Source: Escherichia phage E26. Taken from it: a DNA stretch of 64,000 bases. Each line of letters opens with the position of its first letter. Position 1 is the first letter of the stretch. The stretch is from sequence record MN655998.1. One strand, given 5' to 3'. The notes beneath the pieces are model-generated. The model made no database searches and was not told the DNA's origin. It worked only from the letters and a program-made list of their open reading frames with translations. The position numbers and the translations under genes were made by a program. Positions 42,880 through 64,000 of the stretch are shown here, one piece after another.

Positions 42880-43476
42880 TTAACCCTCTTTAGTCATTAA
42901 TTGAAAACCACGTTCAGCTTTTGAAATTTCGCTAGGACTTAAATCGTCACCAACATATTCTAGCATCATTTCTCGGATAATGTCAAGTGCTTTTTCATCA
43001 CCTGATTTTAACTCGAACTCAAGTTCATAGTGAGCCTCTCCCATTCTTTCGCCGACTTTACAATAATAGAAAGTGTCTTTGCACATTTCCACTATAGCAC
43101 ACTCAAAGTCAAGTGTCAATGACTTGCGGTATGTCATTACTTGCAATAAAGGAACGATAAGGTCGGAGTTTACGCCTAGACTATCAACATAGTGATAGAA
43201 ATCATCCGTTGTTGAAAAAGTAATTTCTTCTCGGTTGAATAGTCCAGATTCACTATCACCTATTTTGACCATGATCAATGATCTGTTAACGTCAAGTCGA
43301 GCATAAATTCCTTTTCGACGCAGTGCATGATCTTCGGTATCATAATAAAATTCGTGTTTTAATATGTTATATCGATCGACGAGATTGTACCCGTCATACA
43401 TTGCTACCCACAAATCACAGATGGTTTCGACGCCAATTGGTGATTGTGCATAGTATTTTAATTCAAGTTCTTTCAT
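42880..43476 (-). CDS. CYTH / triphosphate-tunnel-metalloenzyme-like protein
   Basis: N-terminal ELELK (ExExK) box, central RRKGIYAR, C-terminal YELEFELK (ExExE); 198 aa; no counterpart at this locus in T4. Confidence 0.5.
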   Translation of the reverse strand: MKELELKYYAQSPIGVETICDLWVAMYDGYNLVDRYNILKHEFYYDTEDHALRRKGIYARLDVNRSLIMVKIGDSESGLFNREEITFSTTDDFYHYVDSLGVNSDLIVPLLQVMTYRKSLTLDFECAIVEMCKDTFYYCKVGERMGEAHYELEFELKSGDEKALDIIREMMLEYVGDDLSPSEISKAERGFQLMTKEG

Positions 43477-44696: not shown

Positions 44697-47600
44697 ATGG
44701 CAGATTTTTCTCAACATTTCAAGGCCACGTTTGGCTTTGACGCTGGTAATGAAAAGGTCGTCAATGTAGCATTGGCTGATAAGAATGTCAACACCGATGC
44801 GGTCAACGTTGAATTTTTCAATTACCATAATGGTATTACTCAGTATGACACAACTCGCGGTTATGATCAATACGGAACTACAATCTATCAAAACCGTCCG
44901 TATTATGCAAAAGAAGATATCACAAAACCGGCAGGTGATTTTGACCCGACTAAATGGCAAGCACTGCGCACGGACCCACGTTGGGATTATATTGCAGCAA
45001 CTTCCGGTGATACTCCTTTAAAGTCTGGTGATTATATCGCAGCAGATGGTCAATTTGCAAACTTGACTTTCTCTATGCCAACTAAACCAGCAGAGGGAGA
45101 CACTATAACAGTAAAAGATATCGGTGGCAAGTGTGGTGTTAACGAATTATCGTTCTTGAGTTCAGGACATGAGTTTTACCATAACGGTAATGTGTATAAC
45201 CGAAAATGGTATTGCACTACCCCGTATGCAATGAACTATTTCATCTTTGTTCGTAATCGTTGGCATGTTTATCAGACAGGAACAGAGCCACGCGGTGTGT
45301 ACGCACAGCCAGCGATTGATGCTATTCAAATGCAGAATGGTGACCAGGTATTTCGTCGTAGTTCGTTGGGTAATATTACCTTAGTGCTTCCTAAGTTTGC
45401 CAACAATGGCGACATGATCCAGACTACAGACCTTGACGGATTAACCGCAACCAACCACGTTACGGTTAAAGTTCATGAGCACGCAGAAGAACAATCAATT
45501 GGCACGTCCGGTCTAAAAGAGATTATCGGTAAGCGTAGCGGTCATGGTGTATTCATCTTTGACAAGACGGAAAACTTATGGCGTTTGTGGGATGGTGATC
45601 AGTCTGTTCGTCTTAAACCGATCATCGATGACACTCGCTTGCAACCTAATAGCTATGTTGCTGTATTTGGTGATCGTGATGTTACTCTGACGCTGCCGAC
45701 CAATGTCGAGCCGGGTGATCGTATTCAAGTTTCTATGCAGTATATGCACGGAAACCAGAATTGCCGTATTATCACCGCCACAGAGGATACAAAAATCCTT
45801 ATGTCGAAAAACATGGTTCAGTTTCCGAAGCGTAGCGAGTACCCATTCAACGGGACCGACACATGGAAGGAAGTGTCTGAATTGTCGTTCAATGCGGCTA
45901 GTGATTATGTACCTTATCTGGAGTTCTCTTATTCAGAAGGTGATGATGGTAAGAAACATTGGCTGGTAGCACACTCTCATCCGATCGTCGAACGAGTAGA
46001 CCCTACTCGTAAAGAGCGTGTTGGTGTAATTGCACTGGCTACCCAAACTGAAACGAATAAAAACCATGAAGAGAATCCTAGCGACGAAGTTGCAGTAACA
46101 CCAAAAATGCTGGCTAATAAAACCGCCAACGAAACTCGACGCGGTATTGCTCGCATTGCGACTCAAGCGGAAACGCATCAAGATACTGGTTCTAACTTCC
46201 TGGATGATGTTATCGTTACGCCTAAAAAGTTAAATGACTGTGTTGCTACCGAAGCCCGTCGTGGTGTGATGGAAATTGCAACTCAACATGAAACCAATGA
46301 AGGTTTAGACGATACCCGCGCTATTACTCCTAAGAAATTAGAAGAACGTCGCGCTTCCGAAGATCTCGCTGGCATTGCTGAAATTGTTCAGGCTGGCGGT
46401 AGTGCTGCCGCTCGACGTGGCGAAGCTGGTACAGGGATCTATAACATCAACGACCATGCTAAAATTGTTACGCCACAAAACATCAACGAAGTCAAGGCGA
46501 CCGAAACTTCCCGTGGTGTTGGCTATCTGGCAACTGACGCGGAAGTGCAAGGGGCTACAGAATCAACCCCGCAAGATGCTTTACTAATCACGACTCGCAC
46601 GCTAACGAAACGTACTGCTACCGAATCGCGCACTGGTATCGCTGAAATTGCAACTCAGGAAGAAACAAACTTAGGTCAAAGTGATAACCATATCATCACG
46701 CCTAAAAAGCTGCATGGCAAAAAAGCCACCGAAGGTAAAGAAGGTATTATCCGAGTTGGTACTCAAGCCGAAACCGTGGCTGGTACACTGGCTAATGTAG
46801 CAATTTCTCCGAAGAACTTCAAATATGTTGTTCAGACAGAGGATACATGGAAAGCAACAGAAGCGCGTCGTGGATTCTTGAAAGTTGCTACTCAGGAAAA
46901 CTGTTTTGTTGGTGATAATCTGCAAGGTTCTACTCAAGAACTAGGAAACTACCAGCATGACGGAATTGCTGTTACCCCTAAAGGATTAAACTACGCACTT
47001 GCTAATTTCTTACCTAAGATGGCAACCGCTCAGAATAGTTTGAAATTGGGTAACGTAGAGGCCGCTAAATGGGCGCGTAGAGACATTGACCAGACCATAG
47101 AGAGCAATTACACGTTTAATAAAAAAGTTAACGTGAAGGGCGATTTAGAGTGCTTAAAATCAGGTTCCTTTGAAACTCTGTATGTGACTAAGAACTCTAC
47201 TGATGATCCGAGTAATGGTCATCTGGTGTTGGGTGAGCGTGGAGTTGACGGTCACACCGGAATTACTCTGCATGGCACAACCGCATCGGAAGGCATGAAA
47301 AACTCCTGGTCTATTATCGTTGGTGGTACTGGAACGGCGCAAGCAGTTAATAGTGGCGCTATCGCTTTCGGTCAAATCAATGATGGTGGAGTCGTCGAGC
47401 ATTACGCCTTTGCTATGGAACACACTGGCGACGCGACAGCATATAGAAACTTAATGGCAGGTCGTAACCTGTATGCAAAACAAGGCGGTTTATACATTGT
47501 TGACCTGTCTAATCCGGCAATGACTCGTTCCTCAGATGGTATGCTGAATATCGGTCACGGTGGAAGTGTTAACATCAAGGCAGGTTATCAGAATCTGACT

Positions 47601-51067: not shown

Positions 51068-54013
51068 ATGGCAGATTTAAGCAGAATCCAATTTAAACGC
51101 ACTAGCACTAAAGGTCGTCGACCGGATGCTAGTACGATGAATCCGGGGGAATTGGCAATCAACCTTGCGGATCAATATCTTCTTACTAAAAATGATTCCG
51201 GTGCTATTATCAATTTAAGTTGTCCTCCGGTTTATGACCGTGACGTTACAATGGCGGGTAAAGTTAAAGGTAATAATTATATCTTAAGTAAAACCGCTAA
51301 CTATCTGGAAGATCAGACAGCGCGAGATCTTAACTACTTTGGCGCTTTCCGTACCAATGGTCTTGATGGTTTTCTAGAACTAACGCTAAACGTTCCTCAT
51401 CCTACTGGTGTTCAGCATGGTCGAGGATTTACTTTCCAGTATGGACACACTGGATCGCGTGTAGAAACTTATGGCTATAATAAAGAAGGTCAAAAAGCAT
51501 TTAGCTATAAAATGTATCATGAAGGTGATAAACCAACTCCAGGAGAATTGAACGTTTATAGCAAACAAGAAGTAGATAGAATGTTTGTTAAGAACGTTAA
51601 ACTTGCTACATCTCCTAGTGATATCGTTGAAGGCTATTTTAAATTAGCAACTGCAATGATTCCACAAAACGGTCTTAGCGTATTTTTCCGTATTCATGGT
51701 GGTAACGGATATAACGTTACTGCATACGATCAAGTTGATATTGTAGAAATTGTTATTCGCAGTGGAAATGGTCGCCCTAAAGGTGTTAACGTTATTGCAT
51801 ATCGCCGAAATACAAACAAATCATTTGATGTTTTGGCTGTTAATACTTCTGGTGATAACTATGATATCTATGTGAAATATCAGCGTTACACTGATAACGT
51901 TATTGTTGAATTTGGTAAAAGTGTTGGTGTTAATCTGGTAGTTCATGACGTTCCAGACTTTGTTGTTGATCGTCCTGTTGGTGATAATGTTATTGGCGGT
52001 CGCGCGGTAACTCTTTTTAACACCGAAAACAAACGAGGTGTGTTGAGTTTTGACGATAACACACAAAATAGTTATGATATTGTTCACTTGAGTAATGATA
52101 AAGGTACTGGAAGGAAATATATTCGTAAATTCCGTAGTAACTATAATGAAATGATCTGGCATGAGACTGTTCAAGGTTCTACTTATCGACTCGCCACGGG
52201 TAGTACAGATGCTCAGGAGATTCTATCCGTTGAATCTAGTAGCTCTATTGCTGGGACTCATAAAGGTAATATTCTTTCTGGTCGAATGATGTTAGGTGGC
52301 GGTAGTAATGTTATTACCTTGCGGCGTCCTGCTGGTCAATCCAACCATATTGCGTTTCAAGATAATCGGACTGGAGCTATTACCCGTCAAGGGTGGATCG
52401 GTTATGGTAATGCTGATACTAACGTTTTTGAATGGTATAGTGATGTAGGTGGTAGTTCTATTCGTCACCACATCGACGGACAGATCGAACTTGCAACCGG
52501 TAACACAAAACGCGTTTATACTAACGCTCAATTCATCTCAATGAATAGCGACGCCTACCGCATGCTCTACGGTAATTATGGTGCATTCTGGCGTAATGAC
52601 GGCGTTAAAGTTTATCTTCTTTCTACTGCCGAAAATGATACAATGGGCGGATGGAATGCCTATCGTCCATTCATTTATGATTTAACTTCCGGTAACGTTC
52701 AATTAGGCGGTGATGGTAACGAAGAAGCATTAACGTTAGAACGTGCTTCTCGTGCCGCTCGCTTTAGTAATGACGTTTACATTAAGAAAGGGCTTTTGAC
52801 TTTCGACGCTGGTCGCTCTGGATCTCGCGATTATATTCGATTTAATCATTGGGGTGATAGTAATAATGCCCGTGATAACGTTTTGTACATAGAAGATAGT
52901 CAAGGCCGACATTTTAGCACAGAACGTGCGATGGGTACTGGTGCTCTTAAAGCATACTTCTTAGGCGATCTTGAAGTCGGTGGTAAGTTTACTTGGGGTA
53001 AAAATACAGCTACATCTAGCTTTAATATTCGTGCATGGGGTAATGATTCCCGTAAACAAGTATTAGAATGCGCGGATGAAAGTGGTTGGCATTGGTATAC
53101 CCAACGTCCAGGCGGTCCGGGAACAAATGAGATTATATTCAATGTTAACGGGAAAGTTCAATCTCAGGGTTTTGAGACTTCTGGTAATATTAAGATAACT
53201 GGACCAGACATTGAGTTTCGTCGCACTGGCAATAAGCACATCTGGTTTAGAGATCCTGACGGCTTAGAATTGGGTTTGATTTATTGTGACGACAACGGCG
53301 TTATTCGTTTCCGTGGTCAAAAACAAACTCAAGATTGGATATTTGGCAATAAGACGATCCAATTAGGAACTAGTGCTACTGTTAGTGGATCTGGTAACGG
53401 TTTGATTCGCGGACAAGTTCAAGGTGGTGCTTGGACACAATGGAGAGATCGTGCTGCTGGCTTATTGGTTGATTGTCAGAATACCGAAAACTCTGCACAT
53501 AACGTGTGGAAAGCGACACATTGGGGCAAATTCCACATTGCAGCTATGGGTATTCACGTTTCAGGTGGAAATATAGCAAACGCATTGGCGCGTCTACATG
53601 TTAATGATGCAACTTTTGACCATAGTGCGAGCGGTGACTTCCAGGCAAGCCGTAATGGTAGCTTTAACGATGTTTATATTCGTTCTGATGCTCGCCTTAA
53701 AATCAATAAGGAAGAGTATAAAGAGAATGCCACAGATAAAGTTAATCGCTTGACGGTATACACCTATGACAAGGTTAAATCTTTAACCGACCGTACTGTC
53801 ATTGCTCATGAAGTTGGTATTATTGCACAGGATCTTGAAAAAGAATTGCCGGAAGCAGTAACAACTTCTAAGGTCGGCGATCCTGATAAGCCAGAAGAGA
53901 TCTTAACAATTTCTAACTCTGCTGTCAACGCTCTTTTAATTAAGGCGTTTCAGGAAATGAGCGAAGAATTGAAAGCCGTTAAAGCTGAACTAGCGGAACT
54001 TAAAAAGAATTAA
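51068..54013 (+). CDS. 37: long tail fibre distal subunit gp37 with C-terminal intramolecular-chaperone-like domain
   Basis: MADLSRIQFKRTSTKGRRPDA...GELAINL resembles T4 gp37 start; C-terminal SDARLK (Ser-x4-Lys) box as in S74-type autocleaving chaperone domains. Confidence 0.8.
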   Translation: MADLSRIQFKRTSTKGRRPDASTMNPGELAINLADQYLLTKNDSGAIINLSCPPVYDRDVTMAGKVKGNNYILSKTANYLEDQTARDLNYFGAFRTNGLDGFLELTLNVPHPTGVQHGRGFTFQYGHTGSRVETYGYNKEGQKAFSYKMYHEGDKPTPGELNVYSKQEVDRMFVKNVKLATSPSDIVEGYFKLATAMIPQNGLSVFFRIHGGNGYNVTAYDQVDIVEIVIRSGNGRPKGVNVIAYRRNTNKSFDVLAVNTSGDNYDIYVKYQRYTDNVIVEFGKSVGVNLVVHDVPDFVVDRPVGDNVIGGRAVTLFNTENKRGVLSFDDNTQNSYDIVHLSNDKGTGRKYIRKFRSNYNEMIWHETVQGSTYRLATGSTDAQEILSVESSSSIAGTHKGNILSGRMMLGGGSNVITLRRPAGQSNHIAFQDNRTGAITRQGWIGYGNADTNVFEWYSDVGGSSIRHHIDGQIELATGNTKRVYTNAQFISMNSDAYRMLYGNYGAFWRNDGVKVYLLSTAENDTMGGWNAYRPFIYDLTSGNVQLGGDGNEEALTLERASRAARFSNDVYIKKGLLTFDAGRSGSRDYIRFNHWGDSNNARDNVLYIEDSQGRHFSTERAMGTGALKAYFLGDLEVGGKFTWGKNTATSSFNIRAWGNDSRKQVLECADESGWHWYTQRPGGPGTNEIIFNVNGKVQSQGFETSGNIKITGPDIEFRRTGNKHIWFRDPDGLELGLIYCDDNGVIRFRGQKQTQDWIFGNKTIQLGTSATVSGSGNGLIRGQVQGGAWTQWRDRAAGLLVDCQNTENSAHNVWKATHWGKFHIAAMGIHVSGGNIANALARLHVNDATFDHSASGDFQASRNGSFNDVYIRSDARLKINKEEYKENATDKVNRLTVYTYDKVKSLTDRTVIAHEVGIIAQDLEKELPEAVTTSKVGDPDKPEEILTISNSAVNALLIKAFQEMSEELKAVKAELAELKKN

Positions 54014-54053: not shown

Positions 54054-54293
54054 ATGGTCTATAATATCGTCATTGGTGCTTTGTCTAATTTCGGAATGAA
54101 ATTATTGTCAAAGTTAATTAGTGAAAAGATGCTCACTAAAATTTTCTTCTATTGCGCTCGTCGTCTTGCGGCTTATACCAATACGCCAATTGATGACCGT
54201 TTCGTGGAAGAACTTTATAAGGAGTTTAATAAAGATCAGTCAGAAGATAGTAACGAGCAAGATAAACCTAGTGATAGTCAACTACCTAAATAA
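54054..54293 (+). CDS. hypothetical protein (79 aa) at the position of gene 38
   Basis: Hydrophobic N-terminus, acidic C-terminus; no similarity to gp38 adhesin recognised. Confidence 0.4.
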   Translation: MVYNIVIGALSNFGMKLLSKLISEKMLTKIFFYCARRLAAYTNTPIDDRFVEELYKEFNKDQSEDSNEQDKPSDSQLPK

Positions 54294-54326: not shown

Positions 54327-54983
54327 ATGCAAGTTTCTGAAAAAGGGAAAGACTTTGCTATCTCAAATGTCCTGCGCGCTATTTTCACAACTAAAAGCAC
54401 GGAGTTGCTCGTACTTCGTGTTTTTGCTGCCGTCGTGTTGTCCATATTGGCATTTGTCGTTTATAGTAAAAACGAGTTATTTGCGCTTTATAAAGAGACT
54501 CGTTATGAGACTTATGCTCACATTCTCCAGGTAGAGAAAGACCGCAATTTTGATAATGCAGCACAGGAGCAGTTACAGATAGTTCATGTGTCGGCTGATG
54601 CCGATTTTTCTGCTGTTTTTAGTTTTCGTCCGAAAAACCTAAACTATTTTGTTGATTTGGTGGCATATGAAGGAAAGCTACCGCACACAATCGATGAAAA
54701 AAATTTAGGCGGATTCCCTATCAATAAAACGAGTGAAGAATATCGTAGGCATCTTTTAGGTAAATCATATTTTACCGATAAAGATTTCCAGTATATTCCA
54801 TCAAGAGAAAAGAAATTAGAGAATATCGATATAGGTTTCATGTATTCTTGTCCTATATTCAATCTCGATAATGTCTATTCTGGTAGTATCGCCATTTCAT
54901 GGAAGAATAAACCGGATATTGACATTGAGAATTTAGATACTCTTTGCAATCAATCTGCCAGAATCCTCGGAAGGATTAGATAA
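54327..54983 (+). CDS. t: holin T
   Basis: 218 aa; single N-terminal TM; QLQIVHVSADADFSAVFSFRPKNLNYFVDLVAYEGKLP and C-terminal ARILGRIR as in T4 T. Confidence 0.8.
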   Translation: MQVSEKGKDFAISNVLRAIFTTKSTELLVLRVFAAVVLSILAFVVYSKNELFALYKETRYETYAHILQVEKDRNFDNAAQEQLQIVHVSADADFSAVFSFRPKNLNYFVDLVAYEGKLPHTIDEKNLGGFPINKTSEEYRRHLLGKSYFTDKDFQYIPSREKKLENIDIGFMYSCPIFNLDNVYSGSIAISWKNKPDIDIENLDTLCNQSARILGRIR

Positions 54984-54990
54984 CTTAAAG

Positions 54991-55018
54991 GGGAAGCCTT
55001 TCGGCCTCCCCTTCTTTT
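54991..55018. terminator. hairpin GGGGAAGCC-tttc-GGCCTCCCC + T-run
   Basis: Between convergent t and minus-strand gene. Confidence 0.45.
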
Positions 55019-55266
55019 TATTGACGCATAGACGCGCCTGAATCACATTTTGACGCTGTATGATGAAAACATGTAGCGTACCAGTCATCGGCTTGTTTGT
55101 CTTCGTCAGAAAACGCGTAATTTCGTTGTATGCCGTTTTCTACTTTGACCAGTGCAATAGCTGTTTCTGGAAGATCAATCAATCGGACAAAATCACCATC
55201 TTCCCACTCTACACGAGCAATATCATAGCCCATCTCAAAGTATACAATCGCTTGTTCTAATTTCAT
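55018..55266 (-). CDS. DUF2829-like (Tad2-family-like) small protein
   Basis: 82 aa; N-terminal EQAIxx...GYDIARVEW and C-terminal QADDW resemble the DUF2829 pattern; weak. Confidence 0.3.
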   Translation of the reverse strand: MKLEQAIVYFEMGYDIARVEWEDGDFVRLIDLPETAIALVKVENGIQRNYAFSDEDKQADDWYATCFHHTASKCDSGASMRQ

Positions 55267-55586
55267 TCTGGAAACTTCCCGTAAACATTCTCTGCCAGCT
55301 TACGTGCATCTTTTACAATATCTTTCATGTAATGACTATAATTTTTAGCTAGATCAATGATGCAATCAACAAAGAAGTAATAGCGTCGCAGTGCTACCAG
55401 CTCAACATCTTCAAGATGACCATTTTCTCCAATCGCTGAAATATGTTTAAATTCCTTTCGGATCGCGTCCATCGCTACATTAACTTCTTTTATAATATCT
55501 TTCGTATTATATGCACCTCGACTAATCAAAATTTTGGTTAGGTCTTCTGCTTTTTCGTGAAAGTTGTCAATTTCAAACTCGATCAT
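55263..55586 (-). CDS. hypothetical protein, EVN...GKF paralog a (start at MIEFEID)
   Basis: ORF track starts at GTG; ATG with RBS AGAGGTGA preferred; C-terminus ENVYGKFPE. Confidence 0.45.
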   Translation of the reverse strand: MIEFEIDNFHEKAEDLTKILISRGAYNTKDIIKEVNVAMDAIRKEFKHISAIGENGHLEDVELVALRRYYFFVDCIIDLAKNYSHYMKDIVKDARKLAENVYGKFPE

Positions 55587-55700
55587 AATCACCTCTCATA
55601 ATTTCACGCTGTTGTTTCAACATTTTTTCGTGGTTTGCTAATTCTATACCTTGTAATAGCATAACCAGTGCAATTTTCAATGATTCATCATCTTTCATAA

Positions 55701-56033
55701 TCAAAATTTACCGAAAATATTCTCTGTCATAATTCTTGCTTCGTCGATTATTTTCGTCATGTTCATGGTGTAGTTATGATCATTTAGTGCTTTAATGACA
55801 ACGAGCAAGGAATCTAAAAACACTCGATAACGGGTATATTCTACACTATTTGTGAATACCGATGTTTTCTCTACTTTATCGATCAGATAGCCTAAAACCG
55901 ATAGCGCCTCGTTTACTTCCCTTGTTACTTTATCGGCGCTAAACAGTACCGGATAAAGACGCGGTGTGATTAACCGCGCTGCCTCTTTCAATTCTGTCGC
56001 TTTCCATGATTCATATTTGTCATAGTTAAACAT
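55701..56033 (-). CDS. hypothetical protein, EVN...GKF paralog b
   Basis: Shares KEVNxA and ENIFGKF blocks with paralog a. Confidence 0.45.
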   Translation of the reverse strand: MFNYDKYESWKATELKEAARLITPRLYPVLFSADKVTREVNEALSVLGYLIDKVEKTSVFTNSVEYTRYRVFLDSLLVVIKALNDHNYTMNMTKIIDEARIMTENIFGKF

Positions 56034-56045
56034 TGTATAATCACC

Positions 56046-56377
56046 TTACAGATGAAAACCTGTTACGATCACCGCATCGATCATACCGCTAGGAATAAAC
56101 GGTTCGCCCTCTTTTATTTCAACTTTGAATTGATGCCATTTCGCTAATACTTCTTCCGGTACACCCAGCGATTCGGCGTCTGCTTTAGTTTCATCCATAA
56201 TCCAACTAGGCTGCATGAGAGCATAGTTTACATAGTCCATTTCTGGGGTCATGTCATCAATGTTAATATATTTGCAGTTGACACGTTTCAGAATTTCAAA
56301 TTCTTTATCGTCAACTTGTACCATATACAATTCGGTAGTTTCTGGTATCAGTTCCCACACAATCAGTACATTTTTCA
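56046..56377 (-). CDS. hypothetical protein (~110 aa; start at MKNVLIV)
   Basis: ORF track (GTG start) with internal ATG preferred. Confidence 0.4.
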
Positions 56378-56386
56378 TAGTTAACC

Positions 56387-56755
56387 TCACTTAACAAAGA
56401 TTTTCTTTAATGCTTTCAGGATCGTTGCTTCCGGCGCTTCTTCCGGTGGAGGAAGCAATTCTACAACTTCCTCTTCCAACTCGATATAGTCTACCAGATA
56501 TTCTACATAGAATGCAAGTGCTTCCATGAAATTAGATGCTACATCCGATTCGCCACACGCGCCCACATGCATTGTATAAACATCACTGCGATCAAGTTTG
56601 TGGATGCTTCCCAGATAGTTTCGGTTATACCAAACTTCCCACACTTTCAGTTTTCCGGTTTTGGTTGCGGTTTTATAGTCTGTTTCGTAGTGATGCAATT
56701 GACGTTGCAAATCATTGATAATAACACATTTTTCGTAATTGTTTTGAATTTCCAT
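56387..56755 (-). CDS. hypothetical protein (122 aa)
   Basis: ORF track. Confidence 0.45.
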   Translation of the reverse strand: MEIQNNYEKCVIINDLQRQLHHYETDYKTATKTGKLKVWEVWYNRNYLGSIHKLDRSDVYTMHVGACGESDVASNFMEALAFYVEYLVDYIELEEEVVELLPPPEEAPEATILKALKKIFVK

Positions 56756-56765
56756 GATTTAATCC

Positions 56766-56957
56766 TCACTTATCGTTAAGAAGTTCTAAAACTTTCTGTC
56801 GTACTTTGTCAATATCGGTTGATTCAAAAACTGTACGGTATCCCCAGCTTTGACCGTATGAGCGGTTGCAATCTCCATATCCCCATTGTTCAACCTGGTA
56901 GTATTCAAGGAATTGGTGCTGCCGAACTATGATACCATCGCGATTAAAAATTACCAT
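56766..56957 (-). CDS. hypothetical protein (63 aa)
   Basis: ORF track; RBS GAGGAT. Confidence 0.4.
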   Translation of the reverse strand: MVIFNRDGIIVRQHQFLEYYQVEQWGYGDCNRSYGQSWGYRTVFESTDIDKVRQKVLELLNDK

Positions 56958-56979
56958 GATATAATCCTCACGTCAAAAC

Positions 56980-57258
56980 TTATCTTCGGTTGTACTTCTG
57001 CCACTTTCGGTAATACTGCTTGTAATGTTGTTTAATGTTTGTTGGTTCGTCACTATACATGTTATCAACCATCATGTCAATAAGACCTTCCGGTGTTTGA
57101 TAGTTACCCGCTCGAATGAGTTCCTTAATCAAAAGATCTTGTGTCGCTTTATACTTGACAATAACAATTGTCTTTTCTGCCTTTCCAATTCCGATCCGGT
57201 CGTTAGCTCTCATAGCATCCCACCAATCTTTTTTAAACTTCATGTTGTTAAATTTCAT
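56980..57258 (-). CDS. hypothetical basic protein (92 aa)
   Basis: ORF track. Confidence 0.45.
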   Translation of the reverse strand: MKFNNMKFKKDWWDAMRANDRIGIGKAEKTIVIVKYKATQDLLIKELIRAGNYQTPEGLIDMMVDNMYSDEPTNIKQHYKQYYRKWQKYNRR

Positions 57259-57261
57259 AAT

Positions 57262-58062
57262 TTAACCCTTCTTATATTCGCAAACATATTGAGTACCATA
57301 ATCATAGCTAATGCGACCTTTCTCGATGACTTCAAAGCGGATTTCATCGTTTTCCCCTACCCACATTTTGTACTCGTTGAAGTATCCTGCTACATCCGGT
57401 TTGCTCATACCAACAACCATATTTTTATATTGTTTGCTGCGTGTCAGATTTGATTTAAACACTTCGCGCTCATCAACATATACGAAAGAAGACAATTCAC
57501 CTTCGGTCATGGTCATTTTCAGCTTGCCGCCCTTGTTGCCATAAGTAGAGTTGCCATACAATGGATCTTTGCGGCTGTCTGTTTCAATACCATCAATGAT
57601 TTTCCATGTAAATTTTGCAATGCACTGATAAGTGATAGATCCAGAGATTTTCTCTTCTTTCTTCTGTTCTTCCACCACTTTTTCTTCCTGTTTCGGTTGT
57701 TCTTCGTCAACCTTCACAGAAGTCTCTGAATCGCTTTCTGATGCGGTTTCTTCTTTAGGTAATACATTCATCAAGTTTTGGATTTGAGCGTTATATACAG
57801 CCTCCAGTGGCTGGATCTGCCCGATATTGATCATTGTATCACGAACAGTTTTATTCCAGTTGCGTTGCTCTTGTTTAAGAGACGGATCAATCTTAACAGC
57901 CTTAACATACACTTCATGAAGTTTAGAATCCAGTGCGGAGATTGACTCATTAGCACAAATAAACTTCTCTGATTTGGTAGTAGCTTTAGCGCAATCGAAG
58001 GAAGCAGCATTAGCACCGAAAGCAGTAGCAGAAAGAACGATAGCAGCGATAATGTTTTTCAT
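57262..58062 (-). CDS. secreted protein with DUF1311 (LprI lysozyme-inhibitor-like) N-terminal domain
   Basis: Signal peptide MKNIIAAIVLSATAFGANA; CAKATTKSEKFICANESISALDSKLHEVY...QRNWNKTVRD matches the DUF1311 Cys/QRxW pattern. Confidence 0.5.
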   Translation of the reverse strand: MKNIIAAIVLSATAFGANAASFDCAKATTKSEKFICANESISALDSKLHEVYVKAVKIDPSLKQEQRNWNKTVRDTMINIGQIQPLEAVYNAQIQNLMNVLPKEETASESDSETSVKVDEEQPKQEEKVVEEQKKEEKISGSITYQCIAKFTWKIIDGIETDSRKDPLYGNSTYGNKGGKLKMTMTEGELSSFVYVDEREVFKSNLTRSKQYKNMVVGMSKPDVAGYFNEYKMWVGENDEIRFEVIEKGRISYDYGTQYVCEYKKG

Positions 58063-58090
58063 AATATATTCCTCAATGTTTTTCTTGATG

Positions 58091-58124
58091 GGAGTATCTT
58101 ACTACTCCCTTAATCCGGTGTCAA
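58091..58124 (-). promoter_or_regulatory. PeSL early promoter (TTGACA, stem GGGAGTA/TACTCCC)
   Basis: As 20679 element. Confidence 0.5.
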
Positions 58125-58131
58125 CTACTTT

Positions 58132-58287
58132 TTAAATTTCTTCTACAGTAAAGTCTTCAATGTTGTTGTGCTCGGAGAACGTTGCTAGACCAGCATCCCA
58201 TGCATCATCCTCAGAGAAGAATACACCGTAACGTTCATATCCTTTAGCGCCTTCAAATTTAACCATTAATTTGTGAGTATGTTTCAT
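58132..58287 (-). CDS. hypothetical small protein (51 aa; start at MKHTHKL)
   Basis: ORF-track entry begins at the TTG of the -35 box; internal ATG with RBS AAGGAGAAT. Confidence 0.35.
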   Translation of the reverse strand: MKHTHKLMVKFEGAKGYERYGVFFSEDDAWDAGLATFSEHNNIEDFTVEEI

Positions 58288-58322
58288 TTTGATTCTCCTT
58301 CGTTGTCTTGATGAGTTTAGTA

Positions 58323-58347
58323 TAGGGGATCGCCGATCCCCTGTCAA
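58323..58347 (-). promoter_or_regulatory. PeSL early promoter (TTGACA - GGGGATCGGCGATCCCC - TATACT)
   Basis: Hexamers plus palindrome. Confidence 0.5.
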
Positions 58348-58359
58348 CTATTTTTTAAA

Positions 58360-58620
58360 TTATTTTCGCCATTCACCGGAAACAATGAAGTTTGTAAAGT
58401 GATTGTGGTCCGTGATAATGTCATTAAGTACCATATGCGGATATGCTTTAGTGTAATCACGTTTACGATCAGTCATCCAGCCAACGAAAGTCGGTGCAAA
58501 GTACGGCACACCGTCAGACGATGCCATATTAAACCCTTTATCAACCATAAATGCAGCCGCCCGAAGATTTTTAATTGAAGTAGTGCGACTAATTTCAAAA
58601 ACTTTATCGGTAAAATTCAT
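58360..58620 (-). CDS. hypothetical protein (86 aa)
   Basis: ORF track. Confidence 0.45.
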   Translation of the reverse strand: MNFTDKVFEISRTTSIKNLRAAAFMVDKGFNMASSDGVPYFAPTFVGWMTDRKRDYTKAYPHMVLNDIITDHNHFTNFIVSGEWRK

Positions 58621-58832
58621 TTTAAGCCCCCCGCTCGTGCATTAATACGCATTTTCTGCATAGCCATAATCTGGCGTACTGCTTCTTCTTTGCGTTCTTG
58701 TGTGATAACGTGACCAGATTCCGCAAACTCTCCAGCGACCTCTTCCACGATCTCGCGAACTTGAGAACGTCCAAAGATGCGGTTTCCTTCGTAGCTCATA
58801 AATTCAGTCACTACTTGCTCAATAGATTTCAT
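58617..58832 (-). CDS. hypothetical protein (71 aa)
   Basis: ORF track; RBS AAGGAGAAT. Confidence 0.45.
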   Translation of the reverse strand: MKSIEQVVTEFMSYEGNRIFGRSQVREIVEEVAGEFAESGHVITQERKEEAVRQIMAMQKMRINARAGGLK

Positions 58833-58855
58833 GTGATTCTCCTTTCGTCTGGTAT

Positions 58856-58890
58856 GGGAGTATATTACTACTCCCGTTTCTTTACGTCAA
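58856..58890 (-). promoter_or_regulatory. PeSL early promoter (TTGACG, stem GGGAGTA/TACTCCC)
   Basis: As 20679 element. Confidence 0.5.
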
Positions 58891-58897
58891 CTGGTTT

Positions 58898-59140
58898 TTA
58901 GAAATTTTTCGCTTCTTCTTCGGTCATCATAACCGCGCATTCGTGCATAACTTTGAAAACCGGATCAATCATGTCGAATGCTTCGCGAGACAGTTTACGA
59001 GAAGCGATTTTGATTGCTTCAACGTCTTCTACTACAGGAACAAAAACAGTTTTCAGTTCATCGAGCACGGCAGCTTCTTTTTCATTCAGGAAGATTCCAG
59101 CGTCGTACAGTGCAACTTCGATAACATTAACTTTAACCAT
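58898..59140 (-). CDS. hypothetical acidic protein (80 aa; start at MVKVNVIE)
   Basis: ORF track with internal ATG, RBS GGAGGAAAT. Confidence 0.45.
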   Translation of the reverse strand: MVKVNVIEVALYDAGIFLNEKEAAVLDELKTVFVPVVEDVEAIKIASRKLSREAFDMIDPVFKVMHECAVMMTEEEAKNF

Positions 59141-59173
59141 TTTTATTTCCTCCAGTTCGCTTCGGTATGTTAG

Positions 59174-59203
59174 TATAATACTACCGATGACCTTTGGTGT
59201 CAA
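59174..59203 (-). promoter_or_regulatory. early promoter candidate (TTGACA ... TATACT/ATTATA)
   Basis: -35 exact, -10 less certain. Confidence 0.4.
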
Positions 59204-59398
59204 CTAGTTTTTGTTATTTTCGTGAAAATTTTTCGTCTCCTCTAGGTTCTTTTCGACCTTCATCCATTCCGCGTATTCTTGCGCGGCTACTTTCGGATTT
59301 AGTCCGTCTTCGTACATTGCTTCAAGTAATTCTTCGTCGGTGGGCTTATACCCTAGATAAGCCTCCACCTGATTTTTCCAAATTTTATACCAGTTCAT
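59204..59398 (-). CDS. hypothetical protein (64 aa; start at MNWYKIW)
   Basis: Internal ATG chosen to avoid 65-nt overlap with upstream gene. Confidence 0.35.
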   Translation of the reverse strand: MNWYKIWKNQVEAYLGYKPTDEELLEAMYEDGLNPKVAAQEYAEWMKVEKNLEETKNFHENNKN

Positions 59399-59402
59399 AT
59401 TA

Positions 59403-59675
59403 TCACCAATCAAGAGCGCGTGTCTCTGCGTCTTCCCATGCTTGATCCATAACAGCCTTGAAAACATATTCTAAAGTATCATCTTTAGAGAATCCGAAGA
59501 CTTTAGACGGAATATCTTCAATTGCTACTCCCGCAACTTCTGCATTACGCGCTTGGCAATAATGCAACTCTAAGTTATCGAGATAGCGACCGCCTAATTT
59601 CTCCATATCATCCCAGCATTTCCAGTAACCTACTTTATCTGCAATTGCTAACACTTTGCTGTTTTTGTTGCTCAT
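59403..59675 (-). CDS. hypothetical protein (90 aa; start at MSNKNSKV)
   Basis: RBS AAAGGAGAAT before internal ATG. Confidence 0.45.
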   Translation of the reverse strand: MSNKNSKVLAIADKVGYWKCWDDMEKLGGRYLDNLELHYCQARNAEVAGVAIEDIPSKVFGFSKDDTLEYVFKAVMDQAWEDAETRALDW

Positions 59676-59706
59676 CTTTGATTCTCCTTTTGTTTGGTAT
59701 GGGTGT

Positions 59707-59735
59707 ATTATGCAATGATGGATTTGTGAAGTCAA
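59707..59735 (-). promoter_or_regulatory. early promoter (TTGACT-17-CATAAT)
   Basis: Hexamer match and spacing. Confidence 0.5.
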
Positions 59736-59755
59736 CAACTTTTTAAAATAAAAAA

Positions 59756-59777
59756 AGCCGACCACAAGGATCGGCTT
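59756..59777 (-). terminator. intrinsic terminator AGCCGATCC-ttg-TGGTCGGCT + T7 run (minus)
   Basis: Same hairpin as 49316..49337 in inverted orientation. Confidence 0.55.
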
Positions 59778-59786
59778 AATAATCAG

Positions 59787-60182
59787 TTACTTACTAAATT
59801 TCTTTTTGGCTTCGTCTACTGCATGAGATGCCAGTACCGCTGCCGCATGTGCACTTTTATCTGTGTTGCAGAGAACACCCAGATAAACATCACGCCAAAG
59901 TTTAATCATCTCGTAGATCATATCAATATCATTTTCTTGTTTGTTGGCGATGCTATTCGTTGTTATCTGGTAAGGTAACGGCTTAATCTGTACTGGTTCC
60001 GCCATCGGGCTAATCGGTTTCGGATCAGTCATAATAGGTGCTGTTGTGGGTGGTGTTTTCCATACGCCATTATTCCACGGTTTAATCGTTGTATCGTAAA
60101 GTTTATAAGGATTTTTGTCTGGGTCAACCATCCATGCATGATGAGTACCCAAACCATTTGAAGTGATGCGTCGTTCAGTCAT
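59787..60182 (-). CDS. hypothetical Pro-rich protein (131 aa)
   Basis: ORF track. Confidence 0.45.
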   Translation of the reverse strand: MTERRITSNGLGTHHAWMVDPDKNPYKLYDTTIKPWNNGVWKTPPTTAPIMTDPKPISPMAEPVQIKPLPYQITTNSIANKQENDIDMIYEMIKLWRDVYLGVLCNTDKSAHAAAVLASHAVDEAKKKFSK

Positions 60183-60185
60183 AAT

Positions 60186-60383
60186 TTATTTCCTCTCTGA
60201 TAATTCTTTCATCAAGCTGTCGATCTTTGCTCTGTGTTCTGGCGTGTTTGTCATCTCTGCTAATTTGCTCAGAGATTCACTGGTGATCCGGTTGGATTCT
60301 TCCAGTGTTTCAACGACAATTGGCACAATCTTTTTATTGTTGTACAGAAATGCAATATAACCGCCTTCTGGATATTCTTTCAT
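60186..60383 (-). CDS. hypothetical protein (65 aa; start at MKEYPEG)
   Basis: ORF track begins at TTG; ATG two codons in. Confidence 0.4.
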   Translation of the reverse strand: MKEYPEGGYIAFLYNNKKIVPIVVETLEESNRITSESLSKLAEMTNTPEHRAKIDSLMKELSERK

Positions 60384-60385
60384 AA

Positions 60386-61750
60386 TCAACCCTTCTTAAG
60401 TTCTTTAAGATCTTTCTTATATTCCTTCATTGCGGTCGTCTTTGTCCAATACTCATATTCACTATGATGTTTCTCGGCATCTTTGACCAGTCGATCATAC
60501 TCTTCTTGAGTAACGCTATACAATGGCATAGAAACTAGCTTATCGGCGTATGGACGCAGTTTTTCATGTCCATTGATGGATTGCATTACCTCGGCCTTTT
60601 TCTTTCCCTGTAGCTCGATTTCGCCCTTAATTACAAGGTCGATAAATTCTGCTTTAGCCATTGCATAATTGTATGCTTCCAGCGTTTCCGCTTGCATCAA
60701 TTCAATGCGTTTATCGACATACCCTAATCGGATTTCGACGAATCGACGGATCAGATCGCTCGCTTTCTCGAATACTTCAACTAAGCCACGTTCATTAACT
60801 ACCACGATATTCTGGGCTACTAACTGCGTTAGTTTAAAATCCTTCATGATCTGCTCATGTCGAGCGGATTCATCTTCGCTTTTGAAATAATCGCGTTTCA
60901 GTGTTACTTCAAATCTGAATCCGTCCTTAGAGCAACGGTCATTATATGAGACAATCAGATCTTTTTCTTCCAGTGCATCCAGTACCGCCACATATTCTTC
61001 ACGGTCGAACTTATAAGGAACTTCTGATATTGTCAGTTTAGTCTTGCCGTTTAGTTCATATGTACCCTCAAGGATCACACCATCTCGATCATCTCGCGGG
61101 ATAACTTTACCCGTGAATTTCGGGAATTGAACACGAGGTTCTTTATCCAGTTTTCCGGTAAGTGCTAGCTCTGTGCATTCAATGAGGCTTTCCAGTGAAT
61201 GCGGTAAAATGTCAGTTTTATACCCTGTAGCAATACCACTAATACCATTAGCTAGTACCATTGGCACAACTGGCAAGTAGAATGCTGGCGGGATGTGTTC
61301 CAGATCTTCGTGCTTAGGTGCGCAATTCATATCTTTATAGATTTTAAAGAAGTTTTCATGCACACGAGCAAAAATATAACGTGCTGCACCTGCTTTCTGG
61401 ACTAAACGCGATCCAAAGTTACCTTGACCGTCAAGCAGCGGAGTATTATTGCTCCATGTATTCGCCATGAGTGATCCAGCTTCTACAGCATTAGTTTCCC
61501 CGTGGTGATACCCCAACTCAGCGACACCAGATCCAATATCTGCCATCTTACGGAATTTCTTACGGTCGCCTTTACTCTTTTGAAGTGCGCACTCCATAAC
61601 AAAGCGTTGCACTGGTTTAAGCCCATCCACTAATTGAGGAATCCCGCGTTCCTCGGCAGAATAGATCGCATATTCCTTAGCTTCATTATGTACAATGCTT
61701 TCAAGGCTGCGGTAAGTAAATGTGTTTACAATTTGACTAATTTTATCCAT
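60386..61750 (-). CDS. 52: type II DNA topoisomerase medium subunit gp52 (GyrA-like)
   Basis: RGIPQLVDGLKPVQR GyrA-type motif; ~454 aa from ATG with RBS GAGGTGA. Confidence 0.8.
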   Translation of the reverse strand: MDKISQIVNTFTYRSLESIVHNEAKEYAIYSAEERGIPQLVDGLKPVQRFVMECALQKSKGDRKKFRKMADIGSGVAELGYHHGETNAVEAGSLMANTWSNNTPLLDGQGNFGSRLVQKAGAARYIFARVHENFFKIYKDMNCAPKHEDLEHIPPAFYLPVVPMVLANGISGIATGYKTDILPHSLESLIECTELALTGKLDKEPRVQFPKFTGKVIPRDDRDGVILEGTYELNGKTKLTISEVPYKFDREEYVAVLDALEEKDLIVSYNDRCSKDGFRFEVTLKRDYFKSEDESARHEQIMKDFKLTQLVAQNIVVVNERGLVEVFEKASDLIRRFVEIRLGYVDKRIELMQAETLEAYNYAMAKAEFIDLVIKGEIELQGKKKAEVMQSINGHEKLRPYADKLVSMPLYSVTQEEYDRLVKDAEKHHSEYEYWTKTTAMKEYKKDLKELKKG

Positions 61751-61757
61751 CTTCACC

Positions 61758-62120
61758 TCATACACGCTTACAAATCACATTCTTTACTTTATCAGATTTA
61801 TCAGCCCAATCCAATAGCCATTTTAACGGAAGGATTGAAACAATAAACGGGGCAGCAATCAAAGCAAACATGATACACCTGATAATCAGGAAAACGCAAG
61901 TGACAAAACTAGCGATAGTGATCCCGACAAAACAAAATACCATAGAAAACAGAGTAATGATATAGAAAGGCCAGAATACCCACTCCCGCATCTTAACGCC
62001 TTTGTATTCTCTGAATTGCTTAAAATCTACAAACAACTCTCGGATAGACGCGTACAGGACCGAAAAATCATCTTTCATTGCTCTGAATGAGCAATCTTCT
62101 ATTTTAGAATGACCTAGCAT
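61758..62120 (-). CDS. hypothetical membrane protein (3 predicted TM helices)
   Basis: 120 aa, hydrophobic segments. Confidence 0.45.
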   Translation of the reverse strand: MLGHSKIEDCSFRAMKDDFSVLYASIRELFVDFKQFREYKGVKMREWVFWPFYIITLFSMVFCFVGITIASFVTCVFLIIRCIMFALIAAPFIVSILPLKWLLDWADKSDKVKNVICKRV

Positions 62121-62122
62121 TA

Positions 62123-62416
62123 TTAACCGCCTTTAACCATTGATACAGGAATTGTTTTCTGATTTGTGTATAAGTGGCCTACTTCAATTTTTTCTTGAAT
62201 CACCACGACGTTACAATATCCACTGTCTTTAAGTTTTCTGATAATGACTCGCTTTTGTTCGTCGGTGATAGGATTGACTGTTCTCACCAATTCACCGCAA
62301 ATAATAGCACCATCTTTACAATTGCCAGTAACTTTCATGCTACGACCGTGAACAACAACCACATCACCGTAAATCACATTTTCGTCGTCGTATTTGGTAA
62401 TAACCGTGACTGTCAT
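62123..62416 (-). CDS. hypothetical protein (97 aa)
   Basis: ORF track. Confidence 0.45.
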   Translation of the reverse strand: MTVTVITKYDDENVIYGDVVVVHGRSMKVTGNCKDGAIICGELVRTVNPITDEQKRVIIRKLKDSGYCNVVVIQEKIEVGHLYTNQKTIPVSMVKGG

Positions 62417-62461
62417 AATGTATTCCCTCTAAGAAAGGCCGCGCAAAGCGGCCTATGTTGA

Positions 62462-62788
62462 TTATTGTTCTACAGTATAACCGTTGTTTTCAAGCCATGC
62501 AATAACAATCTTTTCGCCAATTTCATCGAGCATTTCATCAGCGCCGTATTCTTTGATGAAAATCGATGGATCGTTATTGCTTACTACGTGCTGGATCACA
62601 ACATGTTCAGGAATTGCGTCTAGCAGTTCGCTATGATCATACTCATTAACGATATCTTCAACACTAACATTATTAACCAAATCAACATCATCCATAGTCA
62701 CAGTAACGCGACCGGACGGACGAAGTGAATATTGGCTACTTTCAACTTCAACATGTGCACTTTCGCAAGTAACTTTCATATCAACCAT
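62462..62788 (-). CDS. hypothetical acidic protein (108 aa)
   Basis: ORF track; RBS AGAGGAAT. Confidence 0.45.
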   Translation of the reverse strand: MVDMKVTCESAHVEVESSQYSLRPSGRVTVTMDDVDLVNNVSVEDIVNEYDHSELLDAIPEHVVIQHVVSNNDPSIFIKEYGADEMLDEIGEKIVIAWLENNGYTVEQ

Positions 62789-62802
62789 AATTAATTCCTC
62801 TG

Positions 62803-63795
62803 TTAGTAATGGCTAAAACCTTCGGTCACATCTTCAACCACATAGTAACGATGACAGCGCATTTTGGCATTCGCATAATCTTTCGGGATACTTACAACGT
62901 GACGCGGATCAACTTTACATTTAATGATTCGGCCTCGTCCACCGCCATAGTGCGGAATATAGTGTTTCGCTGCAACGTGGAGGCCATTAGAGCAAGTGCG
63001 ATCATCATCTGGGTCCACGTCTTTACGCTTCATTTTAACCGTGCGACCTGGGCTATTATCAAACGTATGCGTAAAGAAATCTTTATAATCAACATCAACA
63101 CGTTTCCATGCATAGAAACAACCATCTTCCACGATCTCAATGTCGTTGTGCTCTAAGAAGTCAAACAGACGATCTACGGCCTTACGGCTAGGGTTTTTCT
63201 TGCACTTCTCAAAGAAGTTCAGATAGTGCGTATATGGCTTATTCTCTTTAATCGACTCCACAACTCGACGAGTCAGATTATTATCAAGAACAATATTATG
63301 ATAATACACAATACCATTTTCGATCCGGAAAGCGCCGTGATAATATACTTCAACCGCTTTCTTAATGTCAATCAGCGTAATAGCTTTGATGAAATCATTA
63401 TGTTTAATCGCTTCCAGTGCTTCATTAAAGTTAACATGCGACGGATCAGCAGTATAAACAATGTCACCACATGTAATAGTAATAAACTTAGTTGAGGCTA
63501 TTGCTACGATTTTTGAGGAAGTAGTCACGGGCTTTTTTGCGCGTTCACCGCCTTTTCCTTTACTGGTTTTACGGCGTGCTTTACGTTTTTCTAGTGCCTT
63601 GCGACCTTCCGCTACCGCGTCTTTCTGAATCAGTAATACACGGGAGGCAGTACGACGAGATACCCCAAATGCTGCCGCAAGTGCTTCGCGGGTAGTAAAC
63701 TTACCTTCGCCCCACTGTTTAGCCAGTTTGATTTGTTTTGCAGAGTCCAAGCATTGAACGTTACGGTCAGAGACGGTGATTTTTGCTTTAGTCAT
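62803..63795 (-). CDS. rIIB: rIIB-like protein (size and map position only)
   Basis: ~330 aa at the genome-end position after gene 52 in T4 order; N-terminal HTH-like REALAAAFGVSRRTASRVL. Confidence 0.3.
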   Translation of the reverse strand: MTKAKITVSDRNVQCLDSAKQIKLAKQWGEGKFTTREALAAAFGVSRRTASRVLLIQKDAVAEGRKALEKRKARRKTSKGKGGERAKKPVTTSSKIVAIASTKFITITCGDIVYTADPSHVNFNEALEAIKHNDFIKAITLIDIKKAVEVYYHGAFRIENGIVYYHNIVLDNNLTRRVVESIKENKPYTHYLNFFEKCKKNPSRKAVDRLFDFLEHNDIEIVEDGCFYAWKRVDVDYKDFFTHTFDNSPGRTVKMKRKDVDPDDDRTCSNGLHVAAKHYIPHYGGGRGRIIKCKVDPRHVVSIPKDYANAKMRCHRYYVVEDVTEGFSHY

Positions 63796-63857
63796 AGTAT
63801 TCATTCCTCTATTAGTTGGGCGACTATCGCCGCCCGATTCACATCATTATACCAGAA

Positions 63858-64000
63858 TTATTTTGCTTCTACAACCTTGCGGATTGTGCGGTCTGATACA
63901 TTATAGATTCGTGCCAGTTCGCCTTTAGTCAAGCCGCGAGCGTATTGTTTACGGATGGTTTCTTTCTGGATAGCGGTCAGTTTAGTCATAATATCACCTC
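63858..64000 (-). CDS. 3' end of upstream gene (frame open to window edge) or 43-aa HTH ORF
   Basis: Frame open to window end; internal ATG with RBS GAGGTGA gives MTKLTAIQKETIRKQYARGLTKGELARIYNVSDRTIRKVVEAK. Confidence 0.3.
   Translation of the reverse strand, partial: GDIMTKLTAIQKETIRKQYARGLTKGELARIYNVSDRTIRKVVEAK

Follow-up and report, generated by a model that had tools for sequence, protein, structure and literature searches.

Which genes fill the stretch between the holin gene t and rIIB in Escherichia phage E26, and by what programme are they transcribed? In phage T4, the corresponding stretch carries asiA, asiA.1, arn, arn.1-4, motA and motA.1 between t and the topoisomerase gene 52, and 52.1, ac, stp, ndd, ndd.1-6, denB and denB.1 between gene 52 and rIIB. 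The window analysed here, i.e. the whole stretch of 64,000 nt taken from the E26 record MN655998.1, contains in its flagged region (positions 54984–62800) gene 52 and a series of small open reading frames (ORFs). A sequence-only reading of this DNA, which had placed asiA, arn and motA as well as ac, stp, ndd and denB in the respective T4 intervals in agreement with the T4 annotation, took their absence as the sign of a phage without T4-style middle-mode transcription and with unmodified cytosine in its DNA. The present analysis upholds this view in its essential points. What was flagged corresponds to the variable, or hyperplastic, early-gene region that the RB49-like coliphages (Krischvirus) carry from holin t to rIIB, and we estimate a probability of roughly 90% for the overall reading that its genes are organised in operons driven by early promoter–stem-loop elements (PeSLs), in a phage type devoid both of a MotA/AsiA-dependent middle mode and of a pathway to 5-hydroxymethylcytosine (hmC).

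A megablast search with positions 54984–62800 returned 58 phage records, every one of them an RB49/Phi1/JSE-type coliphage. Fifty of these match at 95–99% identity and eight at 90–95%, with a coverage of at least 80% in 50 records; the top identity over the flagged region is 97.9%, and no record reaches 99%. Taxonomic data were fetched for two matching records, GEC-3S and Phi1, both of which belong to the genus Krischvirus. The whole window is colinear with positions 100,848–164,270 of Phi1 (NC_009821) at 93–98% identity and, judged by this alignment, comprises ~39% of the genome. By nucleotide identity and by synteny with the RB49/Phi1-type genomes, E26 is a member of Krischvirus. The last position of the window coincides with that of the Phi1 record; the “terminal” position that had been ascribed to the region merely reflects the database habit by which T4-type records start between rIIA and rIIB. 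The G+C content is ~40% across the entire window, in which Rfam (gathering threshold) and ARAGORN detected neither a tRNA nor an Rfam family.

The t-to-rIIB regions of RB49, Phi1, JSE and GEC-3S share the gene order of E26 (37, small ORF, t / ORFans, 52, ORFans, rIIB), its ORF families and its PeSLs. The order and orientation of 37, t, 52 and rIIB are also those of T4, at 44–51% protein identity, and small early genes, encoded on the strand opposite to t, occupy the two intervals in both phages. In contrast, none of the 18 T4 interval genes tested (ndd.2 to ndd.6 stood outside the tested set) has a homologue in the window, and the window promoters are of the consensus TTGACA type, unlike the T4 early or MotA-box types.

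A T4-type middle mode is characterised by the activator MotA, the co-activator AsiA and Mot boxes in above-chance number, and none of these three hallmarks was found. Thirty-three T4 proteins were compared by tblastn with the window and with 163.2 of the 164.3 kb of Phi1, the remaining 1 kb lying inside gene 36. All positive controls (gp52, rIIB, t, gp56, srd, modB, gp55, denA and cd) were recovered, and no match below E = 0.01 was obtained for asiA, motA, arn, ndd, denB, ac, stp, a T4-type gp38, alc, a-gt, b-gt, modA or imm; the best E-values for MotA and AsiA were 2.6 and 4.3, respectively. Hidden Markov models (HMMs) built from ~85 MotA and nine AsiA sequences were scanned against 4,923 stop-to-stop ORFs of the window and Phi1. 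They scored T4 MotA at 8e-96 and T4 AsiA at 2e-51, and the best ORF of the window or Phi1 at E 0.026 (12 bits, in frd.2) and 0.37, respectively. Among the 20 small ORFs, Pfam yielded no MotA_activ, MotCF, AsiA or other T4 early-gene family at E ≤ 1, and no resemblance to MotA, AsiA, Arn, Ndd, DenB, Ac, Stp or gp38 emerged from Pfam, PHROGs, tblastn, the custom HMMs, hhalign and predicted folds. A T4 MotA match at 55003–55326 (tblastn, E 5.4) was discarded as noise, and the helical protein pair encoded at 55263–56033 was rejected as a diverged AsiA on account of its hhalign probability (0.2%) and its different predicted fold. The genome-wide search for motA, asiA, gene 42, alc and denB, which the sequence-only reading had proposed as a check, was carried out on Phi1 and found none of them; the Phi1 annotation likewise lists no motA, asiA, 42, alc, denB or glucosyltransferase. 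According to Nolan 2006 (PMC1524935), RB49 has neither motA nor middle promoters, and AsiA orthologues are reported there only for RB69, 44RR, Aeh1 and KVP40.

Promoters were surveyed with the pattern TTGACA-N16-18-TANNNT and with the MotA-box pattern TGCTTNA-N11-13-TANNNT, the expected numbers being derived from Markov simulations. The former occurs 32 times in the window, compared with 3.5±1.7 expected sites (~9-fold), 31 of them on the early (minus) strand; between 54984 and 64000, five sites are found against 0.3 expected, all on the coding strand. A lenient stock promoter scan showed no enrichment (29 sites vs 28.7 in shuffles). MotA-box patterns are at chance level both in the window (3 vs 2.4±1.4 expected) and in Phi1 (5 vs 6.8±2.7), whereas they are enriched in a 60-kb T4 control (13 vs 4.9±1.8; in the strict form 7 vs 0.8). 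For RB49 itself, a consensus for middle promoters and an ortholog of motA have reportedly been sought and neither was found.

The early promoters of the flagged region are embedded in a repeated element. Five sites, with -35 starts at 58124, 58347, 58890, 59203 and 59735, display the PeSL layout, which combines an A-rich tract and (G)TTGAC(A) with a stem-loop of the form GGGGATC...GATCCCC or GGGAGTA...TACTCCC, a -10 element and a CAT that is conserved. In their alignment AAAA, GTTGAC and the downstream CAT are invariant, and further copies occur elsewhere in the window. The repeated combination of AT-rich tract, sigma-70 promoter and stem-loop between ORFans that marks the Krischvirus PeSLs is thereby present, and the five copies show no notable difference from the cassettes between early-strand ORFans described by Arbiol et al. 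2010 and Comeau et al. 2014. Promoter and terminator activities of PeSLs have been demonstrated for Phi1/RB49, and ORFan-rich hyperplastic regions have been described (Arbiol 2010, PMC2839356). The 20 ORFs are grouped into short operons served by the five PeSL promoters and the rIIB promoter, five to six in total. Assigning sigma-70/PeSL promoters to the small ORFs was hence correct with regard to the TTGACA enrichment and the five PeSLs, but not in the sense of one promoter per ORF. The segment 58892–59246, which holds the ORFan 58898–59140 and is bounded by two PeSLs, distinguishes the cassette content of E26 from that of Phi1, where it is absent, and is present in 31 of the 58 Krischvirus records; it is likely an example of PeSL-mediated cassette shuffling and fits the published model. 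The G+C-rich hairpin at 54990–55012 is, from its sequence and its annotated GEC-3S equivalent, likely a bidirectional terminator, and terminator-like hairpins are also found at 59755–59777 and 62436–62454.

Unmodified cytosine was likewise deduced correctly for this phage type. Gene 42, a-gt, b-gt and alc were not found by tblastn in the window or the searched part of Phi1; T4 gp42 matches td alone (E 0.008), and the best E-values were 0.8 for a-gt/b-gt, 0.38 for Alc and 2.5 for DenB. In E. coli thymidylate synthase (TS), Asn177 specifies dUMP, and the equivalent residue of T4 dCMP hydroxymethylase is Asp. An alignment to E. coli ThyA indicated that the td product retains this Asn within the motif ...LGLPFN(V/I)ASY (...LGLPFNVASY... 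in the window), so that td is not the equivalent of gene 42. The td protein has 406 residues, with ~140 extra ones (aa ~83–249) in place of residues 83–109 of E. coli ThyA, and keeps the catalytic Cys. Experimentally, HpaII and NheI both cut RB49 DNA, which is described as being without hmC (Yaung 2014, PMC4041780), and Krischvirus genomes are reported to lack 5hmC synthases and glucosyltransferases, the DNA of TB34 containing canonical cytosine according to liquid chromatography and mass spectrometry (HPLC/MS; PMC13390438). With respect to the T4 proteins directed against cytosine-containing DNA (dC-DNA) or dCTP, Alc and DenB are absent, while a DenA homologue is encoded in the window and a homologue of gene 56 (T4 dCTPase/dUTPase) in Phi1 at 9668–10186 on the minus strand (49% identical to T4 gp56, E 4e-50). 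The claim that the dC-DNA-specific nucleases are missing was accordingly right for denB and wrong for denA.

Gene 38 requires a similar distinction. The window contains no gene 38 of either type, a query with Phi1 gp38 finding nothing at E < 0.1, and the 79-aa ORF at 54054–54293 is unrelated to either gp38 type (no Pfam family). T4 has gene 38 after gene 37; E26, in contrast, has no T2-type gp38 gene beside gene 37, and its gp37 ends in a self-cleaving Peptidase_S74 chaperone domain (aa 873–932, 45 bits, Pfam), an architecture shared with RB49 gp37 (PMC9569957). A true T2-type gp38 adhesin is encoded in Phi1 at 44,989–45,765 on the minus strand (Pfam GP38 238 bits, Gp38_N 66 bits), outside the span of the window. 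RB49-like phages attach gp38 to the processed gp37 tip as receptor-binding protein (PMC9569957), and the place of its gene varies within the genus: FL04, FL15 and FL20 carry it close to the holin gene, FL37 and FL38 at another site (PMC12032242). Since a T2-type gp38 is present elsewhere in Phi1 and is known for RB49, the absence of gene 38 describes the window and not the phage type; for motA, asiA, denB and ndd the reported absence holds. For a late structural gene, the gp38 gene of Phi1 is oddly placed: ~110 kb away from gene 37, in a variable region, and on the early strand.

The estimate of about 20 small ORFs proved accurate, with 17 minus-strand ORFs between t and 52 and three between 52 and rIIB. 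The set corresponds to ORF255-272 as annotated in Phi1 and to the equivalent series in GEC-3S. All PHROG matches are to families labelled “unknown function”, and NCBIfam and PADLOC gave no matches for ten region proteins each. The description of the ORFs as all novel fails for two of the 20. One of them, ORF 55018–55266 adjacent to the hairpin, scores 27.9 bits against Pfam PF11195 (Tad2-like; cut-off 25) over 71 of the 73 profile positions, a borderline value, and its moderate-confidence model suggests a Tad2/AcrIIA7-like fold. The alignment behind this model is shallow, because a single-sequence search of 1.8 billion representatives found only eight relatives at E ≤ 0.001 (a word-indexed search gave two). 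A phmmer search of the PDB sequences returned nothing for it, and the solved members of the Tad2/DUF2829 proteins (SPO1 Tad2, ModTad2) and AcrIIA7 are 14–25% identical to it. Judged by this family membership, the product is a candidate sponge that probably sequesters Thoeris signalling nucleotides. The other is the LprI-domain protein encoded at 57262–58062, which has its own PeSL promoter and for which phmmer likewise found nothing among the PDB sequences. Its LprI domain is of the lysozyme-inhibitor-like kind, and a periplasmic role, e.g. in superinfection exclusion, is conceivable; in Phi1, neither T4 spackle (best E 0.068) nor T4 imm (best E 0.12) is matched significantly.

Among the remaining ORFs, the paralogues 55263–55586 and 55701–56033 are predicted to form bundles of four long helices, and the membrane protein 61758–62120 is placed like the small T4 membrane proteins 52.1/ac, without homology to them. 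The acidic ORF 62462–62788 has a composition typical of DNA-mimic anti-restriction proteins and gave no sequence match to any solved structure (phmmer against PDB sequences). One might go further and regard the t-to-52 interval as an anti-defence island that starts with a working Tad2-family sponge of TIR-derived ADP-ribose signals, its other ORFans countering host immunity or envelope functions (e.g. the secreted LprI-domain protein) and the acidic 108-aa protein of the 52-to-rIIB interval perhaps serving an unmodified-DNA phage as DNA mimic. We regard this extension as tentative and somewhat doubtful, and we found no paper describing such a role of the t-to-52 interval for Krischvirus phages.

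Several points weigh against the overall reading. Absence at the level of the whole genome would have to be transferred from the 93–98% identical Phi1 and from the literature, the rest of the E26 genome being outside the window. The AsiA HMM was built from fairly close homologues (57–99% identical), and the broader Pfam AsiA model covered the 20 region ORFs only. Homologues of denA and gene 56 are present although dC-DNA or dCTP is the target of their T4 counterparts. Support for the Tad2 assignment comes from a borderline Pfam score and from a moderate-confidence model for which Foldseek found no match. Eighteen of the 20 ORFs have no assigned function, which leaves room for a non-homologous regulator. 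A MotA/AsiA-like middle mode might thus be run by proteins without detectable similarity that hide among the 20 ORFans, and the paralogue pair at 55263–56033 would invite this idea by being small, helical and close to t, which asiA adjoins in T4. However, the hhalign comparison of the pair with AsiA is negative, Mot-box-like promoters are not enriched, and an AsiA-like protein would be expected to block the perfect -35 element on which the early promoters depend. Moreover, earlier searches of RB49 reportedly yielded no consensus for middle promoters and no motA ortholog (Desplats 2002 as cited in PMC1524935), and we consider a concealed middle mode improbable.

The missing genes might instead have been relocated in the E26 genome outside the 64-kb window, as gene 38 is in Phi1, where the true gp38 gene lies far from 37 and t, and the small share of the genome that the window represents is compatible with this. 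Relocation appears highly improbable to us, given that tblastn and the HMMs were negative over the searched 163.2 kb of Phi1, that its annotation agrees, and that published analyses of RB49 and other Krischvirus genomes concur (PMC1524935, PMC13390438). A separate objection concerns the step from missing genes to unmodified DNA, since cytosine could be modified by a pathway of another kind. It draws on a 2026 report that the Krischvirus phage SAP, although 99.96% identical to the unmodified TB34, contains 5-hydroxymethyl-deoxycytidine (5-hmdC) and its glucosyl and gentiobiosyl forms with no identifiable pathway (PMC13390438), and also on the gene 56 homologue of Phi1. SAP being modified without a known pathway, gene content is strong evidence but not proof of unmodified cytosine. 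However, seven Tequatrovirus phages from the same collection have a modification profile equal to that of SAP, and no explanation of the modification is offered by the authors (PMC13390438). The DNA of RB49 and TB34 is experimentally unmodified (PMC4041780, PMC13390438), no TS-family hydroxymethylase was found, td keeping its dUMP-specifying Asn, and tblastn revealed no glucosyltransferase gene; a hidden modification is, in our judgement, quite improbable.

Consistent with the sequence and literature data, we favour the following scenario for the RB49-like early region of E26. Gene 52 and the 20 small early-strand genes are arranged in a few short operons driven by near-consensus sigma-70 PeSL promoters, and this early transcription would end at the hairpin on meeting the late tail-fibre/holin operon. 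Delayed-early genes might be reached from strong, -35-dependent promoters in combination with read-through, without a middle class in between. The two-class programme known for RB49 from the literature, i.e. early and then gp55/gp33-dependent late transcription, would apply, and only start sites of the sigma-70/PeSL type and of the TATAAATA type would be expected. The T4 genes of both intervals have been replaced and have not merely diverged, as seen in Phi1 and published for RB49, because the lineage is devoid of the MotA/AsiA sigma-appropriation system. It is also devoid of the hmC pathway (gene 42, glucosyltransferases) and of the dC-DNA-directed proteins Alc and DenB. The small genes may fulfil accessory host-takeover or anti-defence functions and may be shuffled between phages by recombination at the PeSLs.

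The features of the region and two genes outside it are compiled in the table. Just upstream of rIIB, a 43-aa helix-turn-helix ORF is located at 63858–63989 on the minus strand (Pfam CENP-B_N, 26 bits). Its match to the N-terminal 40 residues of T4 rIIB (42% over 38 aa, E 5.9) is not significant; it weakly resembles that segment, as if an N-terminal module of rIIB might have been duplicated or split off. Elsewhere in the window, a CYTH-domain protein (Phi1 ORF245) is encoded between rnh and dsbA at 42880–43476 (minus strand), and a second ADP-ribosyltransferase gene (ADPrib_exo_Tox) adjoins alt at 11994–12818 (minus strand). A modA homologue was not found in the window or the searched part of Phi1 (tblastn, E < 0.01).

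Table. Genes, promoters and terminators of the E26 window discussed in the text, with positions counted from the first nucleotide of the window.
Feature	Position	Strand	Evidence
denA (endonuclease II, GIY-YIG) homologue, outside the flagged region	30334-30795	-	50% identical to T4 DenA, E 4e-42; Pfam GIY-YIG
td, thymidylate synthase, sole gene of this superfamily in the window	37079-38299	-	Pfam Thymidylat_synt 283 bits
Gene 37, long tail fibre distal subunit	51068-54013	+	Pfam Gp34_trimer 88 bits; N-terminus 48% identical to T4 gp37
79-aa ORF (Phi1 ORF252) in T4 gene 38 position	54054-54293	+	No Pfam or NCBIfam family
Holin t, last gene of the late plus-strand tail-fibre block	54327-54983	+	Pfam Phage_holin_T 207 bits; 49% identical to T4 t
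G+C-rich hairpin AAGGGGAAGCC-TTTC-GGCCTCCCCTT where late (+) meets early (-) transcription	54990-55012	both	GEC-3S equivalent annotated as terminator on both strands
82-aa acidic protein, Tad2/DUF2829 family (borderline)	55018-55266	-	Pfam PF11195 and predicted fold
Paralogous pair 55263-55586 and 55701-56033, with 41-aa ORF 55573-55698 in between	55263-56033	-	29% identical; phrog_9457
Four ORFans, 56046-56378, 56387-56755, 56766-56957 and 56980-57258	56046-57258	-	PHROG “unknown function”; no Pfam match at cut-off
266-aa secreted protein, signal peptide and N-terminal LprI/DUF1311 domain	57262-58062	-	Pfam LprI 24.6 bits (cut-off 22); hydrophobic N-terminus; phrog_14799
PeSL early promoter AAAAAGTAG-TTGACA-N17-TAAGAT, stem GGGAGTA/TACTCCC around -10	58096-58134	-	Sequence read
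51-aa ORFan (Phi1 ORF263)	58132-58287	-	PHROG (phrog_19699)
PeSL early promoter TTGACA-GGGGATC-GGCG-GATCCCC-TATACT, stem-loop in spacer	58319-58357	-	Sequence read
Two ORFans, 58360-58620 and 58617-58832	58360-58832	-	PHROG
PeSL early promoter TTGACG-N17-TAATAT	58862-58900	-	Sequence read
80-aa ORFan between two PeSLs	58898-59140	-	No PHROG match
PeSL-type early promoter TTGACA-N17-TATTAT	59175-59213	-	Sequence read
Two ORFans, 59403-59675 (phrog_7287) and 59204-59398 (phrog_8655; likely start MNWYK)	59204-59675	-	PHROG
Composite terminator-promoter: intrinsic terminator 59755-59777, then TTGACT-N17-CATAAT	59707-59777	-	Both annotated in GEC-3S
Two ORFans, 59787-60182 and 60186-60383	59787-60383	-	PHROG
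Gene 52, topoisomerase II medium subunit	60386-61765	-	tblastn 51% identity to T4 gp52, E 3e-146; Pfam DNA_topoisoIV 232 bits
120-aa membrane protein 61758-62120 and 97-aa ORFan 62123-62416	61758-62416	-	Maximum hydropathy 2.66 (membrane protein)
108-aa very acidic ORFan	62462-62788	-	Isoelectric point 4.1, net charge -18, 21% Asp+Glu
rIIB	62803-63804	-	44% identical to T4 rIIB, E 1e-75; annotated rIIB in Phi1 and GEC-3S

The traits of the RB49 type, namely the lack of a MotA/AsiA middle mode and of hmC genes and the PeSL-driven ORFan regions, have been in the literature since 2002–2010. The value of the present analysis lies in the correct identification of the window and in a clean negative control for T4-centred annotation. 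It also leaves two leads, a Tad2-family candidate anti-Thoeris gene beside the holin gene and a gene for a secreted LprI-domain protein that has a PeSL promoter to itself. Finally, the fact that a phage type with unmodified cytosine keeps homologues of denA and gene 56 bears on the puzzle posed by SAP.

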